Source: a virus (lineage: Duplodnaviria > Heunggongvirae > Uroviricota > Caudoviricetes). Taken from it: a DNA stretch of 44,292 nucleotides. The translations under genes and the position numbers were made by a program. This document shows, in pieces, positions 1,419-9,125 of the stretch. Below the pieces are notes generated by a model. That model was given only the letters and a program-made list of their open reading frames with translations. It was not told the origin of the DNA and made no database searches. The DNA is taken from the IMG/VR virus record IMGVR_UViG_2660238147_000001. One strand, written 5' to 3'. How positions within the stretch are numbered: the stretch's first letter is position 1; each line of letters starts with the position of its first letter.

Positions 1419-3860
1419 TTAAAAATCAGCCTGACTCGGGATCAGTTTTTGCCAGATAACTGAAACGTATTTTGCCTGGTAACGGGCGTCATCAAGTGCA
1501 TTATGGCGCTCACCTTCGAATGGAATAGCCGTTCTGGCATCGAAGTCTATGGCTTTCCCCAGCTCAACGATTGTGCGTACATCGCGATCGTTGTAGTAAC
1601 GCCACGGGCAGGGGATCCCCTGCCGTTCGTATGAACGGCGCAAAATCGTGTTGTCGAAGTTGGCTCCATTTCCCCAGACCTGAACAAAAAATTCACCGGA
1701 GTTTTCGTCGATAAATTCCCGCAATTGTAACAGTGCATCATCTAACGGGATTTCATCGGTCATAATGGCAGATTGCGCTTCGCGTGATTGCTTAAGCCAC
1801 CATTTAATGGTGTCCCGATCAATGACTCCGCCAGCAGTTTCCAGATCGATAGTCTTACTAAATTCCGGTCCCATATCTCCGGTTTGCGGATCGAAAAATA
1901 TTGCACCTATTGAGATGATCGGGGCATCAGGATTTTTTCCCATGGTTTCAAGGTCGATCATTAGATGGTCACACGTCCTGCTGGTGGATGTGATTTCTTG
2001 ATGACCGTTCACCTTAATTGAGTGATCTGCCGTCTCGCCAGTTTCATTATCGCTATCGTGATGCTGATTGCCGCCAGTGTTCTCCTTGTGTGGATGTTCA
2101 GCGCCTTCCATTTCCTCCGGATCATCTTCCTGAACTTCAACCTGATACTCTTCATCGAATGTTTCCTGGTATGTTGCGTCGCCCATCACCGCGCCACAAT
2201 CAGGGCAGTTGCCGCCGCCGGTCTGACCGCAGGCGGTGCAGACTTTTTCCACTTCCTGTTGCGCCACTGGTTCGGATTGTTTCGTTTCTGGCTCGTTTTG
2301 TAACGCATTTGGGCTGTTTTGTTCCGCTTTTTGGTCGTTCCGTTCCGATTCATGCTGGTTCTGGTTCACAGAATCGCGAGTCTGGATCCCTTTGACCCAT
2401 TTCGGATCATTAGGGTCGCTAATCCCCTCAACAAATTCACCACGCGATACAGCAAGTAACTTATCGGCGTCAGGCTGGCTGATATTGGCTGCCTGCATAA
2501 TTTTGTTTACTTCGTCAGCGGTGACTTTTACTTGGTTAGCGGAACTCACCTGCGACTGAGCATCCAGCGACTGCGCGTTCTGGCCATGTTCAGTTGTATC
2601 CGGTTCCATTGTTTCAGTTGTTGCCTGTTCACCTGCCATTGCGTCAGATGGTTGTGGTTTTTCTTCTTCTGTTTCACGCTCAGTAACCACCTCGCGGTTA
2701 ATTTCTTCCAGGATATCTTTTTCCGGCGTATGCCGGGCAGCTGTGAGAGTTTCCTTGCTGGGGTTCTCGTGATCAGTTTCCGTCAAATAGGCGTTGATAT
2801 ACCCCTGAAGGCGTCCCGGGTAGTGATAAAATTCAGGGTGTGCGCTTCGGATAAGTGCAAAAATAGCGGCGCGGGAATAGTCCAGAATACCCGGGGTTGC
2901 ACGAAGTGCTGCGGACCATTCTTTGAACGGACTTTCTTTGTTCAGGACTACTTCTTTTGCGCGACGATAAACGCTGCCCGGAATTTCATAAATATTAAAA
3001 TCCATCGGAAGTGTGGCTGCTGCAATCTCCACATCCAGTGTGTCGAGGGTGTGTACTAAATTCGGATTGCGATCGGTTTTGTTCCCACCGCCAGCATTAG
3101 CACCGGAAGCCGTGCGGGTGATGCGTGAAACACGATTTCCTTTCATCCACTCTTTTGTCAGCAAACCCCGATCAGTGTAGTCAGCGTCTAGGTATGCTTC
3201 GAAAAAAGCAGTTATTAGTCCCAGGTCTGAATTACCAGGATTAGGGAAAACTTTGTCAGTGTCACGAACCAGTTTGTGGAGGTCGCGAATCTCCAGCGAG
3301 TCGAGCAGACTGGTTTTATGCGAAATAGCCAGGGCAGTAACAGCCGGTAGTTCTTCAGCCCGTGCAATGTGTAATGCCTGGAGTTCGTCGCGTGAAACGT
3401 GCGTTACTGGTTTTTCGCTGCCGTGTTGAGCAAGCCAACGAATGGGCAGTTCCTGACCGGAGACAGGCAGAAGCATGCTCTCCTCAATCTCAGTCATGGC
3501 TTCGCCGTTGATGTTGGTATTGTCAGTGCTGGCTGGTTTGTCCTGAACAGAGGGGGAAGGGCCGATAAATGTCATTGTGATGCCATCTTTCCCGCCTTTT
3601 TCATAGCGGTTGCAGAATTCAGTATCAAACACGCCTTCTGGCGGAAGGTCGTCAACAACGGGCAAATTGACGCGGACGGGTTTTTTAAAGTCGTCTTCAT
3701 CATAATCGTTGTCATCCATTGCGGTAATGCAGCGGGAGATTGCAACAGATAATTTTTTTGCTGTAGTCCAGTAAAAACCACCTTTAATTCCTAGGCGTTT
3801 TCTTACTTTGTCATTTTTTGCTTCGCAATATAGTGCAAATTCTTCTTTATCAGTGCTCAT
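1419..3860 (-). CDS. Large prophage exonuclease-like protein with C-terminal DnaQ/DEDDh 3'-5' exonuclease domain (often annotated exodeoxyribonuclease VIII in E. coli prophages)
   Basis: 813-aa ORF; C-terminal ~180 aa carry DEDDh-type motifs ([23 protein letters not shown]); long acidic/Gln-rich central linker; occupies the exo/recE slot of the leftward early operon. Confidence 0.7.
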
Positions 3861-3953
3861 TATTGGTAAACCTCATCACAGATTTAAGGGTGAACAAATC
3901 TCTGCCATTGCTGACATATAAGAATGAAACTGGATATTTATTACGGTGCTGTT

Positions 3954-4504: not shown

Positions 4505-4557
4505 GGGCGGCAGAGCAGTCACGGAGTAAAACTGATACCGCCAAACGTCACCAGAAA
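4505..4557 (-). ncRNA. dicF: DicF small regulatory RNA (anti-ftsZ sRNA)
   Basis: Minus-strand sequence UUUCUGGUGACGUUUGGCGGUAUCAGUUUUACUCCGUGACUGCUCUGCCGCCC followed by a U-tract (4501-4504); matches DicF as I recall it, including the 3' GC-rich hairpin; located between ydfC and dicB. Confidence 0.85.
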
Positions 4558-5724: not shown

Positions 5725-6363
5725 TTAAATATCTTGTTGAATTTTAAAGCATACGCCCAATATGCAAGATAGATCATCCAGCATAATTGAAGGGTAGCGA
5801 GGATTCGTGGGGACTAAAAGAATATCCGGCCCTTCTATCTCCAGTTTACGAATGACAGGTGTTGTGGTCCCTTTGGGTAAGGCAAGGACAATATTTCCTG
5901 GTTGTACGGTTCGATCGGGATCAACAAAAACTGTTGAACCATTTGGGATGGAAACTCCCCCACCAGATGTTGACATACTGTCACTCTCTAGAACAACTGC
6001 AAAGGTATTGACCGGGATTTCTCCGACAAGCTGCACACAAGAGGTTATTGAGGAATTTTTCATATAATCACTCCAGCTTGCTGCCTGCTGAAGTGATAGT
6101 AGCGGAACCGTTTTTATCGGCGGTAAAGATAGATCAAGCGAATCACCTGTATTTAACTCTCCTCCATTAAGAAGCCAATTTTCGTTTACTTTCAATATTT
6201 TTGCCAGTGAACTTATGTAACGCGAGGACGGCGCTCCTCCACCGTTCATCCATTGACTTACGGAGCCTTTTGATGCGCCAGTGCCATTGACAAGGTCTTT
6301 GCCTTTCAGGTTTAGCGCATGCATACGTTGGGTTATGCGTTCAGATATAGTTTGCTTGCTCAT
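5725..6363 (-). CDS. cI-like prophage repressor (N-terminal HTH, C-terminal S24/LexA-like peptidase domain)
   Basis: 212-aa ORF; N-terminal helix-turn-helix-like segment (GASKGSVSQWMNG) and C-terminal S24-like autocleavage region; divergent from the cro-like gene with a ~90-bp operator region between them. Confidence 0.8.
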   Translation of the reverse strand: MSKQTISERITQRMHALNLKGKDLVNGTGASKGSVSQWMNGGGAPSSRYISSLAKILKVNENWLLNGGELNTGDSLDLSLPPIKTVPLLSLQQAASWSDYMKNSSITSCVQLVGEIPVNTFAVVLESDSMSTSGGGVSIPNGSTVFVDPDRTVQPGNIVLALPKGTTTPVIRKLEIEGPDILLVPTNPRYPSIMLDDLSCILGVCFKIQQDI

Positions 6364-6426
6364 GTTTTGATTTTAAAACACAGATGGTTTTGTTTCTTGA
6401 CTTTCTTTGGTTTTAATTATTAAACT
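6364..6426 (+). promoter_or_regulatory. OR-like operator plus rightward promoter region
   Basis: Palindromic TGTTTTGATTTTAAAACA at 6364-6380 directly abuts the repressor start codon and shares half-sites with the PL-region operator; candidate PR -35 TTGACT (6397-6402) and -10 TAAACT (6421-6426). Confidence 0.4.
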
Positions 6427-6454
6427 TTTGACGTTCAGTTTTATGGAGCGACTC

Positions 6455-6697
6455 ATGAAAAAATCAGAAGTATTAGGCTATTTTGGCGGAGTTGTTAAAA
6501 CAGCCGCAGCTCTAGGAACGTCAAAAACCACAGTCAGCATGTGGGGGGAAGAGGTTCCGTGGAAATGGGCGTTGCTAATTCAGGCAGTCACTGCCGGGGC
6601 GCTCAAATATGAGTTACACATACCGACGGTTGTCATTCCCGGTTCTGATCATAATCCGCCTTCTAACCAAGGGGGGATTCATGAAAATCAAGCATGA
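6455..6697 (+). CDS. Cro/YdaS-like DNA-binding protein
   Basis: 80-aa frame starting at an ATG with a GGAG Shine-Dalgarno 6 nt upstream; HTH-like motif (LGTSKTTVSMWGEEVP); divergent from the repressor, as for cro. Confidence 0.65.
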   Translation: MKKSEVLGYFGGVVKTAAALGTSKTTVSMWGEEVPWKWALLIQAVTAGALKYELHIPTVVIPGSDHNPPSNQGGIHENQA

Positions 6698-7106
6698 ACA
6701 CATCCGCATGGCGATGAATGCCTGGGCGCATCCGGACGGCGAAAAAGTACCGGCTGCGAAAATTACCAAAGCGTATTTCGAGCTGGGAATGACGTTCCCG
6801 GAACTGTATGACGACAGCCATCCGGAAGCCCTGGCTCGCAATACCCAGAAAATTTTCCGCTGGGTAGAGAAAGACACCCCTGATGCAGTTGAAAAAATTC
6901 AGGCGTTGTTACCAGCGATCGAAAAGGCAATGCCACCTTTGCTGGTGGCCAGAATGCGCAGCCACAGTTCAGCTTATTTTCGGGAGCTGGTGGAGACGCG
7001 GGAGCGACTGGTGAGAGACGCTGATGATTTTGTCGCAGTGGCAATCGCCGGTTTCAATCAGATGAACCGTGGTGGCCCGGCAGGAAATGCTGTGGCAGTA
7101 CATTGA
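6681..7106 (+). CDS. YdaT/CII-like regulator
   Basis: 141-aa frame from an ATG preceded by AGGGGGG; begins MKIKHEHI and ends VAVH, resembling Rac YdaT as I recall it; occupies the cII position. Confidence 0.6.
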   Translation: MKIKHEHIRMAMNAWAHPDGEKVPAAKITKAYFELGMTFPELYDDSHPEALARNTQKIFRWVEKDTPDAVEKIQALLPAIEKAMPPLLVARMRSHSSAYFRELVETRERLVRDADDFVAVAIAGFNQMNRGGPAGNAVAVH

Positions 7107-7177
7107 CTGACAATAGCCATATCGAATCGCTTCCGGCAACTCGTGAGTAAAAAGATTCGGTATCAGAAGAGGTGAGT

Positions 7178-8248
7178 ATGGCTAACGCCTGGCTCAGATT
7201 ATGGCATGACATGCCAAATGACCCTAAGTGGCGAACAATTGCCAGGGTGTCAGGGCAGCCAATTGCAACAGTGATGGCAGTGTATATCCACCTCCTGGTG
7301 AGCGCGTCACGAAATGTCACGCGAGGTCACATTGATGTCACGACAGAAGATTTGGCAAGTGCGCTCGACGTGACAGAAGAGGTAATTGATTCAATTTTGC
7401 AGACGATGCAGGGGCGGGTACTTGATGGTGATTTAATCACTGGATGGGAAAAACGCCAGGTGCTGAAAGAGGACAACGGCAATATTTCGCAAACCGCAAA
7501 ATCTCCGGCAGAGCGCAAGAGGGCGCAGCGAGAGAGGGAAAGAAAGCGGGAACAAAATGGCGATTGTCACGGCGAGTCACGAAATGTCACGCACATGTCA
7601 CGACGAGTCACGACAGATAAAGATACAGATAAAGATACAGATCAAGAAGATCAAAACACTATGGTCCATGGCGTAAAAAACGCCACGAACCAGGCAGGGG
7701 ATGTTCAGACCGTCACTCCTGGCCAGCCCGCAGGCACGACACCGGAAGCCGATTCAGCGTATGCGCTGAAAGCCGATTCGGGCGCTGTGCAGCAGGTGAT
7801 GACCGCAAGGCAGGAGCAATCACACCAACTTCAGCAGCCTGAAGCCGATTCCGCCATTCAGCGGGAAGCCGATCGGGTAGTCCCGGAAAACACCGGGCAG
7901 CCTGTGGGACGAGTGGATTATCCTGATGTGTTCGAACAGGTCTGGCGGGAATACCCGTTGCGTGCCGGGGCAAACCCGAAGAAATCCGCTTTCAGTGCCT
8001 GGAAAGCCAGATTACGCGAGGGGGTGCCACCAGAGGCCATGCTGGATGGCGTGAGGCGTTACGCAAGATACCTTGCGGCTACCGGGAAAACGGGAACGGA
8101 ATTTGTTCAGCGAGCGACGACGTTTTTTGGACCGGACCGGAATTTTGAAAACCCCTGGCTGCTCCCGGTAAGCGGCACGAACAACCAGCGTTGTGTGAAT
8201 CATATTTCTGAACCGGATAACGAAATTCCGCCGGGCTTCAGGGGGTAA
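7178..8248 (+). CDS. Replication initiator / replisome-organizer-like protein
   Basis: ~356-aa ORF after the cro/cII-like genes with a GAGGTG Shine-Dalgarno; contains two clusters of helically phased GTCACG direct repeats inside the coding sequence, as expected for an origin embedded in an initiator gene (lambda O analogy). Confidence 0.65.
   Translation: MANAWLRLWHDMPNDPKWRTIARVSGQPIATVMAVYIHLLVSASRNVTRGHIDVTTEDLASALDVTEEVIDSILQTMQGRVLDGDLITGWEKRQVLKEDNGNISQTAKSPAERKRAQRERERKREQNGDCHGESRNVTHMSRRVTTDKDTDKDTDQEDQNTMVHGVKNATNQAGDVQTVTPGQPAGTTPEADSAYALKADSGAVQQVMTARQEQSHQLQQPEADSAIQREADRVVPENTGQPVGRVDYPDVFEQVWREYPLRAGANPKKSAFSAWKARLREGVPPEAMLDGVRRYARYLAATGKTGTEFVQRATTFFGPDRNFENPWLLPVSGTNNQRCVNHISEPDNEIPPGFRG
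7305..7343. repeat. Iteron-like direct repeats, cluster 1 (4 copies of GTCACG/GTCACA at 10-11 bp spacing)
   Basis: GTCACG at 7307, 7317, 7338 and GTCACA at 7327; an inverted copy (GTGAC) at 7371-7375. Confidence 0.5.
7564..7645. repeat. Iteron-like direct repeats, cluster 2 (5 copies of GTCACG at 10-11 bp spacing) followed by A/T-rich tandem repeat; candidate replication origin
   Basis: GTCACG at 7566, 7576, 7586, 7597, 7607, followed by tandem AGATAAAGATAC x2 (7613-7645). Confidence 0.5.
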
Positions 8249-8288: not shown

Positions 8289-8711
8289 GTGGCAAAAGTT
8301 TTTACACAAGAAGAGCGGGAAAAAATTAAAGGACAGGTTCTTGAACTCGTACGCCAGAGTGGGCGCGAGACGTTACGACAACTGGAAGCTAAAACTGGGG
8401 CAACAAGATATCTGATGAGCGTTCTGGCCAGAGAGCTGGTTGCCAGTGGCGATGTATACAATTCTGGCTACGGGTTATTCCCGTCTGAACAGGCTCGTAA
8501 AGACTGGCAAAATGCCCGCAAAAAATTATCGAGGGCAAAGCTGAAGAAACCGGTTGTGGTTGATCCGGACCTTATCTGGTCGTTACCTGACGGAGAAATA
8601 CGTCGCTACGACAGTCGCCTAAACATAATCTGTCGCGAGTGCCGGAAGAGTGAAGCTATGCAGCGTGTACTGGCTTTCTATCAGGGTAATTTTCAGGAGG
8701 CGGTACTGTGA
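8289..8711 (+). CDS. Hypothetical protein (nin-region equivalent)
   Basis: 140-aa ORF with GTG start and AGGAGG Shine-Dalgarno; no family recognised. Confidence 0.55.
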   Translation: MAKVFTQEEREKIKGQVLELVRQSGRETLRQLEAKTGATRYLMSVLARELVASGDVYNSGYGLFPSEQARKDWQNARKKLSRAKLKKPVVVDPDLIWSLPDGEIRRYDSRLNIICRECRKSEAMQRVLAFYQGNFQEAVL

Positions 8712-8768
8712 GTGAAATTAGCTATCAGGCTTCAATTACCGCTGGCATTCGCATCAAAGGAGAGGAGC

Positions 8769-9125
8769 ATGGAAATAAAACCAGAGGATGAGTTAAGCAA
8801 TATCGTTTTATTTCCGGTAAAAGAGGATGACCCTCGTAATCAGGTTAATTTTCTTTATGAGCCATCGGAAAGACCATATTGTCATCACGCCTCTGTCCGG
8901 GTTGACGAAAAAGAGCGTCAGGTCCGCTGTAAAATCTGCGGTGCAGTTGTGGAGCCATTTGACTGGATGCTCTCTGTGGCGAAAAGAGAAACCAGACTGG
9001 CAGATGATGTAAGGCTCTTGCGTCAGGAGGAGCGGGAAAGGCGAAAAAATATAGAAAAGCTAATTCAGATTGAGCGTAACGCGAAAGCGCGGATACGCAG
9101 GGCGACAAAATCCAGAACTGAATAA
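8769..9125 (+). CDS. Hypothetical zinc-ribbon-containing protein
   Basis: 118-aa frame from an ATG with a strong AGGAGAGG Shine-Dalgarno (internal to six-frame ORF 8712..9125); CxxC-like pair (CHH ... CKIC); basic coiled C-terminus. Confidence 0.5.
   Translation: MEIKPEDELSNIVLFPVKEDDPRNQVNFLYEPSERPYCHHASVRVDEKERQVRCKICGAVVEPFDWMLSVAKRETRLADDVRLLRQEERERRKNIEKLIQIERNAKARIRRATKSRTE

Follow-up and report, generated by a model that had tools for sequence, protein, structure and literature searches.

The segment between positions 7306 and 7692 is very probably the vegetative replication origin of a lambdoid prophage, embedded in the gene of its own initiator in the style of ori-lambda. The window in which it lies, i.e. 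the whole stretch of DNA analysed here, is a viral record of 44,292 nucleotides (IMGVR_UViG_2660238147_000001), and a preliminary description of it had already proposed an origin within the initiator gene. This proposal is now supported by comparative evidence: conservation of the repeats at the DNA level, an A/T tract maintained through codon choice, and the replication-module context of the gene.

The embedded design is already known from phage lambda; here it is found in a very common initiator family. Indeed, the module formed by the N-terminal domain and the iterons is present in 2078 of 5426 complete E. coli genomes (38%), O157:H7 chromosomes among them, with up to four copies per genome. 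The family is mostly annotated as "hypothetical protein", and some Pseudomonas phage records leave the gene uncalled. Our search of the literature on these iterons, on replisome organisers with iterons and on "initiator-solo" modules returned no description and no origin or binding experiment for any member of the family, and the papers on the Eru replication types of Stx phages cover neither the initiator nor the iterons. We rejected the plasmid records that carry the module as proof of an origin, these being phage-sized circles or chromosomes filed as plasmids, with no replicon typing.

Results

Anatomy of the region

Table 1. Position, strand and basis of the features in and around the putative origin
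Feature	Position	Strand	Basis
pR-like promoter match, 5' of cro	6397..6426	+	consensus match only
Initiator gene, 356 aa	7178..8248	+	ORF; PHROG 3729 match; NCBI name; AF2 model
Iteron cluster 1: GTCACG at 7306, 7316, 7337; GTCACA at 7326	7306..7342	+	10/10/11 bp spacing; synonymous sites frozen in 21 homologues
Single inverted iteron (CGTGAC on the + strand)	7369..7374	-	32 bp past cluster 1; same place in many homologues
Iteron cluster 2, origin-proximal: GTCACG at 7566, 7576, 7586, 7597, 7607	7566..7612	+	spacing and TRF
A-rich tract, (ACAGATAAAGAT) x2.9, putative DNA-unwinding element	7613..7660	+	TRF; composition; homologues; codon choice
Imperfect palindrome TGGTCCATGGCG-TAAAAAA-CGCCACGAACCA	7662..7692	.	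inverted-repeat search; right of A-rich tract
C-terminal 24 aa (CVNHISEPDNEIPPGFRG and preceding residues), like host DnaT tail	8174..8245	+	NF002770; PDB DnaT chains

The hexamer GTCACG is strongly concentrated in this region (Table 1): 9 of the 30 exact sites of the window fall within 307 bp, where 0.16 would be expected (Poisson P about 1-2e-13), and no further cluster of these repeats was found in the 44 kb. The preliminary description had counted four plus five copies, spaced by 10-11 bp, in two clusters about 260 bp apart. All five copies of cluster 2 are indeed exact and form a period-10 array in TRF (7566-7615), but cluster 1 holds three exact copies only, the fourth, at 7326, being one mismatch away. 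The spacings (10, 10 and 11 bp, then 10, 10, 11 and 10 bp) and the distance between cluster starts (260 bp, the clusters themselves being about 230 bp apart) agree with what had been described. The exact inverted iteron at 7369-7374 had not been noted before. In 23 homologous genes we counted 97 iteron spacings of 10 bp and 30 of 11 bp, and the conserved repeat cores measure 6-7 bp.

The A/T-rich tandem repeat reported after the second cluster is likewise present, as 2.9 copies of a 12-bp unit, ACAGATAAAGAT, detected by TRF at 7613-7647. The GC content is 0.30 over 7620-7659, with a strong excess of A on the + strand (purine-strand bias), and the tract contains two GATC sites (7640 and 7649). 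The palindrome that follows is also found in the Shigella phage 75/02 Stx. A 13-nt inverted repeat (7108-7120 / 7557-7569) was discarded as being, by our estimate, at chance level.

The initiator

The initiator ORF starts at an ATG with GAGGTG immediately upstream. Its product matches PHROG 3729, "replication initiation protein" (E = 6.8e-257), and bears the NCBI name "phage replisome organizer". In the AF2 model, a winged-helix N-terminal domain (aa 1-95) is followed by a basic helix (aa 110-127), an acidic disordered linker (aa 128-161) and a helical C-terminal domain with a DnaT-type tail. For the N-terminal domain, the model suggests a DnaD-like winged helix: the modelled fold is nearest to the DnaD N-terminal domain, with nothing at E <= 0.001 in a Foldseek search of the PDB, and the protein weakly matches PHROG replisome organisers (E = 6.6e-6 and 1e-4). 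Apart from the tail, the initiator could not be assigned to a family by Pfam or NCBIfam; its N-domain profile matched no sequence in the PDB, and in Pfam and hhalign comparisons the domain has no significant sequence match to any experimentally characterised origin-binding domain. The protein search with the C-terminal domain returned mainly frameshifted fragments. The last 24 aa match positions 156-179 of the 179 of NF002770, at 19.3 bits against a cut-off of 201, as well as the DnaT chains 6aep, 2ru8 and 9zbt_D of the PDB, and contain the DnaT tail motif SEPDxxIPPGFRG.

Selection on the DNA within the coding sequence

Do the repeats merely encode a peptide that the protein needs twice, or that it gained by internal duplication, the DNA itself being without function? 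SRNVT is indeed present twice, as had been noted (aa 44-48 and 134-138), VTT is also present in both segments, and S44, V47, T48, R49, G50 and H51 are invariant among close homologues. The protein-level duplication that had been proposed from this peptide does not stand, however: the two segments share just the iterons and an AAAT spacer (39 nt, 64-72% identity). The recurrence of SRNVT and VTT comes from iterons that share a 10 + 21 bp spacing and hence their reading frames; elsewhere in these arrays the iterons are read as GH/CH or SR, the hexamer being translated in three frames altogether (SR, VT and GH/CH). Structure mapping places cluster 1 in the folded winged-helix domain, where its codons specify the last part of helix 29-45 and the loop aa 46-55; the codons of cluster 2 specify the disordered linker of the AF2 model. 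The common peptide is a by-product of the iterons; the site array itself may have been duplicated as DNA.

The preliminary description had named DNA repeats lost under a conserved protein as the mark of coding constraint only, and we found the opposite. The comparison used 21 non-redundant, diverged genes of the GTCACG type, from hosts with a GC content of 0.34-0.69, the near-identical E. coli copies from the first viral contig scan being of no use for divergence tests. At conserved residues, the entropy of synonymous codons is 0.20 bits in the iterons (n = 14) against 1.42 bits elsewhere (n = 64; Mann-Whitney p = 7.7e-8). The GTC, ACG, GGT, CAC and TCA codons of the iterons are essentially invariant in these 21 homologues, and the Val65 codon, in the inverted iteron, is GTG in 18 of 18 sequences, whereas CGA, CGC, CGT and CGG are used freely for the Arg between two iterons. 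Judged by their codons, the iterons are conserved as DNA beyond what coding needs.

The arrays also change in concert. Both clusters of any one gene, scored independently, carry the same hexamer, which is GTCACG, GTAACG, CGAACG(C), GTGACG or ACTACG according to the subfamily. In cluster 2, which lies in a gappy region of the linker, the copy number ranges from 2 to 7, and extra iterons lengthen the initiator by 7 aa in E. albertii. Frozen synonymous positions beside free ones, a hexamer read in three frames, a variable number of copies in a disordered linker and a joint switch of both clusters leave coding constraint as the sole cause with next to no probability.

We searched for specificity-determining residues outside the iteron-encoded loop and found none that tracks the iteron type. 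This loop is the only segment of the protein to do so. As for a helical phasing between the two clusters, we gave no weight to the small p-values obtained, given that the homologues are interdependent and that the 10-bp periodicity of cluster 2 by itself produces such a signal; the indel sizes alone (+9, +18 and +90 bp) are mildly suggestive.

The A-rich tract, like the repeats, is under purifying selection as DNA. In every homologue of the GTCACG type, the last iteron comes immediately before a GATAAAGATAAAG-type tract, and this is kept as AGATAAAGATAAAG even in hosts of 60-69% GC. The codons chosen there favour A/T, with GAT used in 96% of cases against 46% elsewhere and AAA in 87% against 51% (Fisher p = 1e-16 and 4e-9), and by this measure its A/T richness is maintained by codon choice. 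Across the family, GC-rich palindromes are enriched 3' of the tract, stems of at least 6 being found in 56% of cases, compared with 9% for shuffled sequences and 23% for other windows taken from the same genes. The palindrome stem covaries in one subtype of the family; no compensatory changes were seen in the palindrome at 7662-7692 itself.

This anatomy bears on whether the sites, though bound by the initiator, could be purely regulatory, acting by autorepression or as a roadblock in its own transcript, or by titration or handcuffing, with the true origin elsewhere. Two separate arrays recall the origin and control arrays of the P1 and F plasmids, and cluster 1 is dispensable in distant homologues. 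Cluster 2, however, is found in nearly all homologues, including those devoid of cluster 1, and is always joined to the codon-maintained A/T tract and usually to a palindrome, as in an unwinding origin; nor does the window offer another such repeat cluster. We thus regard a purely regulatory role as improbable.

Association of the repeats with the initiator and its partners

The repeats travel with the N-terminal domain across gamma-, beta- and alpha-proteobacteria and Acidobacteria, in hosts and phages with no other genes in common. This co-occurrence alone is weak evidence, since the iterons physically overlap the domain and are co-inherited whatever their function. In phage 75/02 Stx, an unrelated N-terminal domain is fused to the same C-terminal domain (64% identity) and comes with a repeat of its own, AAGGGGCTTC; this forms two clusters, spaced by about 255 bp, ahead of a (GAACAG) x5.5 stretch. 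The initiator and iterons of phage Tritos are the same (98% identity), but directly upstream is a Rha-family regulator, where the window has a cII/YdaT-like gene, which argues against this neighbour as the iteron binder.

These observations, together with partner genes that differ among relatives and terminase genes that lie far downstream, make it very improbable that another protein (a host factor, a phage regulator, a terminase at a pac site or a partition protein) binds the repeats and that their location in the gene is incidental. Phased short repeats do occur in pac sites and centromeres, and a loose likeness to a CRP half-site is seen in the iteron plus its spacer, AAATGTCAC. The N-terminal domain itself is weakly similar to the CRP-type HTH, and this likeness would, if anything, designate the initiator as the binder.

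The initiator gene comes after a cI-like gene (5725-6363, - strand), Cro and a cII-like gene, and transcription from the pR-like promoter would pass through the putative origin. On its 3' side are a DUF977/LygF gene and a gene for a zinc-ribbon protein. The absence of a P-like loader downstream, remarked upon in the preliminary description, holds for the window: no helicase or helicase-loader gene was found between the initiator gene and the Q antiterminator gene, and the P-type gene missing immediately 3' of the initiator has a P-like counterpart in one relative (L089). In relatives, the initiator gene is followed by a DnaC/IstB-like, lambda-P-like, DnaB-like or Toprim-DnaB gene. Such varied partners point to the initiator gene as the origin-recognition part of replication modules.

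Discussion

How would such an origin fire? Derepression would permit rightward early transcription and synthesis of the 356-aa initiator, whose winged-helix domain would then bind the GTCACG iterons. With one helical turn from site to site, the bound initiators would be aligned on one face of the DNA and could assemble into an oligomer comparable to the lambda O-some. The five-site array (7566-7612) adjoins the GATAAA-repeat tract (7613-7660), the presumed melting element, with the palindrome next to it. The C-terminal domain would subsequently recruit the host replicative helicase; as the phage has neither loader nor helicase, this step would have to rely on the host DnaB-DnaC, the DnaT-like tail being a possible link.

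The upstream array (7306-7342) and the inverted site would be accessory sites for the same initiator. Cluster 1 may help to hold the complex together through a loop of about 230 bp, or may control initiation. A control role limited to cluster 1, which would be compatible with the embedded origin, is quite possible, though we hold it to be less probable than its contrary.

A more specific scheme, to our mind unlikely, is that the initiator imitates the restart-primosome adaptor DnaT but is directed to its target by sequence. Its N-terminal domain would act on the two arrays, looping about 230 bp and melting the GATAAA tract, and its C-terminal domain and tail would plug into the host PriA/PriB or DnaC-DnaB, perhaps with the hairpin as assembly site. 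Such a direct connection would explain why the phage needs no loader of its own. In a related possibility, binding site and reading head may change together in one mutational step, since the iterons themselves encode the one segment of the protein that tracks their type.

An origin recognised within this family provides a testable map of where replication starts in prophages with the module, and a simple signature for annotation, namely NNNACG repeated at 10-11 bp intervals with a GATAAA-type tract after it. Where prophages with common iterons reside together, they may cross-activate or titrate each other's initiators, and this interference is directly testable. The natural series GTCACG / GTAACG / CGAACG / GTGACG could inform work on winged-helix specificity. 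The loader-less layout with a DnaT-type tail offers a handle on the recruitment of the host DnaB-DnaC, a step that is still open for DnaT too (PMC12871339). The gene is also a clean textbook example of DNA-level selection seen within a coding sequence.

Comparison with known systems

The last 22-25 residues of the initiator are nearly identical to the C-terminal tail of DnaT, and sister initiator variants carry the full ssDNA-binding domain of DnaT (PF17948), to which the initiator of the window has no match. DnaT acts at fork structures via PriA/PriB (PMC12871339), whereas our initiator would be aimed at a specific DNA sequence.

The iteron plasmids also present similarities. P1 (incC/incA) and F (ori2/incC) have two separate arrays of the same repeat, one of them beside the unwinding element, and a concerted evolution of arrays and initiator is to be expected. 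However, their arrays flank the rep gene, their iterons measure 17-22 bp and their Rep is a tandem winged-helix protein (Rep_3), whereas the arrays described here lie inside the gene, have cores of 6-7 bp and belong to an initiator with no Rep_3/RepA-type Pfam match.

With SPP1 G38P and the DnaD-like organisers, the initiator shares the "phage replisome organizer" name and weak PHROG matches; its modelled N-terminal fold is closest to that of DnaD, and SPP1 oriL, in gene 38, likewise has repeats and an A/T-rich stretch in mid-gene. The Pfam profile PF09681, aligned over 1-118 of its 121 positions, nevertheless scores only 12.8 bits against a cut-off of 23.3 (E = 0.12), hhalign with G38P is negative (probability 0.1), and SPP1 has the loader G39P and the helicase G40P downstream, neither of which is present in the window.

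Ori-lambda differs in having one cluster instead of two about 230 bp apart, a P gene, and longer iterons, of about 19 bp and with internal symmetry, instead of cores of 6-7 bp one helical turn apart; moreover, our initiator has no match to the lambda O family Phage_rep_O (PF04492) even at E <= 10. The organisation is nonetheless alike. In lambda, iterons and an AT-rich tract lie in the middle of gene O, and in Stx phages extra iterons lengthen O by 13 aa (PMC7466680), as the added iterons of E. albertii lengthen the present initiator. Both systems have a pR-type early operon and a mid-gene origin in which an array of initiator sites leads to an A/T-rich tract and then to a palindrome, with a linker peptide encoded by the origin, and in the window, as in lambda, the N-terminal domain would serve DNA binding and the C-terminal domain the helicase machinery.

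Iterons, tract and palindrome within the prophage

The window is a lambdoid E. coli prophage, mapped in the table below. Nine of its 30 exact GTCACG sites fall inside 307 bp of the initiator gene, where 0.16 would be expected (Poisson P ~1e-13). The preliminary description had counted four plus five copies; repeat detection confirms both arrays, but the fourth member of cluster 1 is GTCACA, and an inverted copy has to be added. The A/T-rich tandem repeat described after cluster 2 is also real: TRF reports a period-10 array running directly into the repeat, GC falls to 0.30 at 7620-7659 and the + strand shows a strong A excess. We also noticed two GATC (Dam) sites in the tract; in several homologues from enterobacteria, too, the GATAAA repeats lead into AGATCT. 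By eye, the reverse complement GATCTGTATCTTT matches the oriC 13-mer consensus GATCTnTTnTTTT at 11/13 positions.

Features of the window, and hairpins with the TCACTACGTTC loop at loci of related initiators (L-numbers)
Feature	Position	Strand	Remark
Integrase	1-1119	-
RecE-like exonuclease	1419-3860	-
DicF sRNA	4505-4556	-	early-left region
cI-like S24 repressor	5725-6363	-
Cro	6407-6697
cII/YdaT-like gene	end at 7106
Initiator ORF	7178-8248		356 aa
Cluster 1, exact GTCACG	7306, 7316, 7337	+
Cluster 1, fourth member	7326		GTCACA
Inverted GTCACG	7369-7374		exact
Cluster 2, exact GTCACG	7566, 7576, 7586, 7597, 7607	+
Tandem repeat	7613-7647		(ACAGATAAAGAT) x2.9
GATC sites	7640-7652		two, in A-rich tract
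Imperfect palindrome	7662-7692		12-bp arms; 3' of A-rich tract
DnaT-like tail of initiator	8174-8245		...SEPDNEIPPGFRG
DUF977/LygF	8289-8711
Zinc-ribbon protein	8712-9125
hok/sok module	10323-10647		toxin-antitoxin type
Hok/Mok-like ORF, 51 aa	10492-10647		start overlapped by sok RNA match (106.7 bits)
DUF968 HNH protein, RusA, Q, three tRNAs, late genes			in that order, 3' of hok/sok
Three tRNA genes	13784-14030	+	downstream of Q
STnc100 sRNA match	14730-14919	+	132 bits; before lysis region
Hairpin, L086	3937-3963
Hairpin, L089	2937-2963
Hairpin, L097	2967-2993
Hairpin, L104	2949-2975
Hairpin, L137	2880-2906
Hairpin, L145	2913-2939

Selection acts on the DNA of the iterons

Homologues of the N-terminal domain of the initiator were found in phage records (Pseudomonas Detrevirus phages and Aeromonas pAEv1818, 70% identity; uncultured phages, 47-48%) and, taking one genome per species, at 68 prophage loci in gamma-, beta- and alpha-proteobacteria, Acidobacteria and others. 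The gene of Pseudomonas phage phi1 carries GTCACG at nt 129/139/149/160 and 388/398/408/418 from its start, and an inverted copy at nt 192, exactly as far from the ATG as in the window. In 23 homologous genes, iterons are spaced by 10 bp in 97 cases and by 11 bp in 30.

Were the repeats due to pure coding constraint, the protein would be conserved in homologues and the DNA repeats would not. This explanation is contradicted by the 21 non-redundant GTCACG-type genes (host GC 0.34-0.69): considering protein-conserved residues only, the 14 codons with an iteron base in third position have a synonymous-codon entropy of 0.20 bits, versus 1.42 bits for the 64 others (Mann-Whitney p = 7.7e-8). In iterons GTC is the sole Val codon and GGT the sole Gly codon, Thr is nearly always ACG, and Ser is TCA in 20/21 genes; the Arg codon between two iterons is freely CGA, CGC, CGT or CGG. 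Moreover, one hexamer is read as Ser-Arg, Val-Thr or Gly/Cys-His according to frame, hence selection acts on DNA. The internal gene duplication formerly proposed is not supported at the protein level, the two DNA segments having only the iterons and an AAAT spacer in common. The duplicated peptide is a by-product of the iterons: SRNVT and VTT recur because iterons 10 and 21 bp apart take the same frames in both arrays.

An A/T-rich tract and hairpins follow the last iteron

In every GTCACG-type gene, even in hosts of 60-69% GC, the last iteron leads directly into a tract of the form (C/T)AGATAAAGATAAAG. Codon use in the 42 nt 3' of it was set against that in the remainder of each gene (Fisher test): Asp was encoded by GAT in 96% versus 46% of cases (p 1e-16), Lys by AAA in 87% versus 51% (p 4e-9) and Glu by GAA in 77% versus 49% (p 0.001); selection on the DNA thus keeps the tract rich in A/T. 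GC-rich palindromes are enriched downstream of it: 56% of cases have a stem of at least 6, which is reached by 9% of shuffles and by 23% of windows elsewhere in these genes. In six genes a hairpin just 3' of the purine tract combines a nearly invariant 11-nt loop (TCACTACGTTC) with a covarying stem, 6/8 pairs being changed on both sides, a score reached by 0/500 shuffles. Other homologues have CCCCCC...GGGGGG palindromes at this position. The window's own palindrome recurs in Shigella phage 75/02 Stx, with no compensatory changes. Purely regulatory sites, a possible explanation for cluster 1, would leave the selected tract and the palindrome beside cluster 2 unexplained.

The N-terminal domain and its iterons behave as a module

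Each of the two cluster zones was scored on its own for its most periodic hexamer, and in most genes both gave the same one. This hexamer differs by subfamily (GTCACG, GTAACG, CGAACG(C), GTGACG, ACTACG), most sharing an (A/C)ACG core. Some genes mix variants within or between clusters: L116 (GTAACGC and GAAACGC), L145 (CGAACG x3 and GTGACG in cluster 1, GTGACG only in cluster 2) and L107. In the most distant homologues cluster 1 is missing, and cluster 2 is retained with the purine tract; cluster 2 is thus the universal element and cluster 1 accessory. Copy number varies in whole-iteron steps. In E. albertii (L088 nt 2501-3553), 21 extra nt in cluster 1, that is two iterons, add 7 aa to a loop of the predicted winged-helix domain, echoing the 13-aa extension that two extra iterons cause in Stx-phage O proteins (PMC7466680). 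A larger insertion of whole iterons in a Pseudomonas sp. (L112) likewise lengthens this loop.

The initiator of 75/02 Stx shares the C-terminal domain (64% identity), with an unrelated N-terminal domain. Its gene (locus L002) has a different repeat, AAGGGGCTTC, in two clusters ~255 bp apart: twice at 3578-3598, and inverted 2.5 times followed by (GAACAG) x5.5 at 3833-3894. A DnaC-like gene follows. That another protein binds the repeats is unlikely, as they accompany the N-terminal domain in phages and hosts unrelated to one another, and an unrelated domain comes with different repeats.

The neighbours vary. In phage Tritos, whose initiator gene is 98% identical, the gene directly upstream encodes a Rha-family regulator instead of the cII/YdaT-like protein, so the upstream regulator does not travel with the repeats. 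The gene 3' of the initiator encodes a DnaC/IstB-like loader in Aeromonas and Pseudothauera, a lambda-P-like loader in Aquitalea, a DnaB-like helicase in Marinobacter and an acidobacterium, and a Toprim-DnaB primase-helicase in Pseudomonas phi1 and Serratia. At this place the window and Tritos have neither loader nor helicase, in agreement with the earlier remark that no P-like loader gene lies downstream. Judging from these comparisons, the N-terminal domain and iterons behave as the part that recognises the origin in interchangeable replication modules.

The module (window 7178-7700) occurs in 2078/5426 complete E. coli genomes, in up to four copies per genome; in ~400 of the 2078 it is an 80-90% identical variant, annotated 'DnaT-like ssDNA-binding domain-containing protein' in the listed examples, including O157:H7. 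Intact homologous ORFs are unannotated in phi1 (L083 3501-4400) and in a P. aeruginosa 50.9-kb circular record (CP137943, L156 ~3001-3900), in both, the stretch left blank is flanked by a small hypothetical gene and the gene of the primase-helicase.

The initiator protein

In the HMM search proposed for the 356-aa protein, PHROG 3729 'replication initiation protein' matches over the full length (E = 6.8e-257), PHROGs called 'replisome organizer' and 'DnaD-like helicase loader' match less strongly, and the NCBI name is 'phage replisome organizer'; no Pfam family exceeds threshold, PF09681 (Phage_rep_org_N) aligning end to end with just 12.8 bits. Cluster 1 occupies codons 43-56, where modelled helix 29-45 ends and a loop begins, the inverted copy codons 64-66, and cluster 2 with the A-rich repeat codons 130-161, a disordered acidic linker. 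The C-terminal ~24 residues are those of the tail of the host primosomal protein DnaT, and sister variants (O157:H7, Aeromonas) have the whole DnaT ssDNA-binding domain PF17948 in place of the tail alone. The rest of the C-terminal domain, whose modelled fold is too uncertain to interpret, recurs in many phage proteins labelled 'replication protein O-like', among them those of SfV, mEp460, phiP27 and ST64B.

A probable origin and its relation to known systems

The proposal of an origin inside the initiator gene, in the manner of ori-lambda, gains from the DNA-level conservation of the iterons and the codon choice that keeps the tract A/T-rich. That a lambda-style origin lies inside the gene coding for its initiator is the best-supported reading, and we consider it probable. 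The predicted winged-helix domain would bind the one-turn-spaced iterons on one helix face, the bound oligomer would destabilise the GATAAA tract and the C-terminal domain would recruit the helicase. Host DnaB-DnaC would have to serve for loading, since the phage has no loader or helicase. The DnaT-type tail, and PF17948 in sister variants, suggest a link to the restart-primosome route, on which DnaB/DnaC recruitment is still open even for DnaT (PMC12871339). Looping through cluster 1 may stabilise the complex; alternatively, this cluster may have a control role.

Our search of the freely accessible literature found no description of these iterons; an earlier one is possible. Among the homologues compared, no residue outside the iteron-encoded loop tracks iteron type. 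What could yet prove new lies in iteron specificity, in what cluster 1 does and in how the helicase is loaded.

Ori-lambda has a palindrome as its third element, and its order of iterons, A/T-rich tract and palindrome is that of the window. The first two elements are described in PMC7466680. By analogy of function, the system would group with ori-lambda/O and SPP1 oriL/G38P; by sequence the initiator falls in neither family (no PF04492 match, PF09681 below threshold, hhalign against G38P negative). In contrast to both systems, the window phage lacks a loader, its repeat cores are short (6-7 bp) and one turn apart, and it has a second array within the domain-coding part of the gene.
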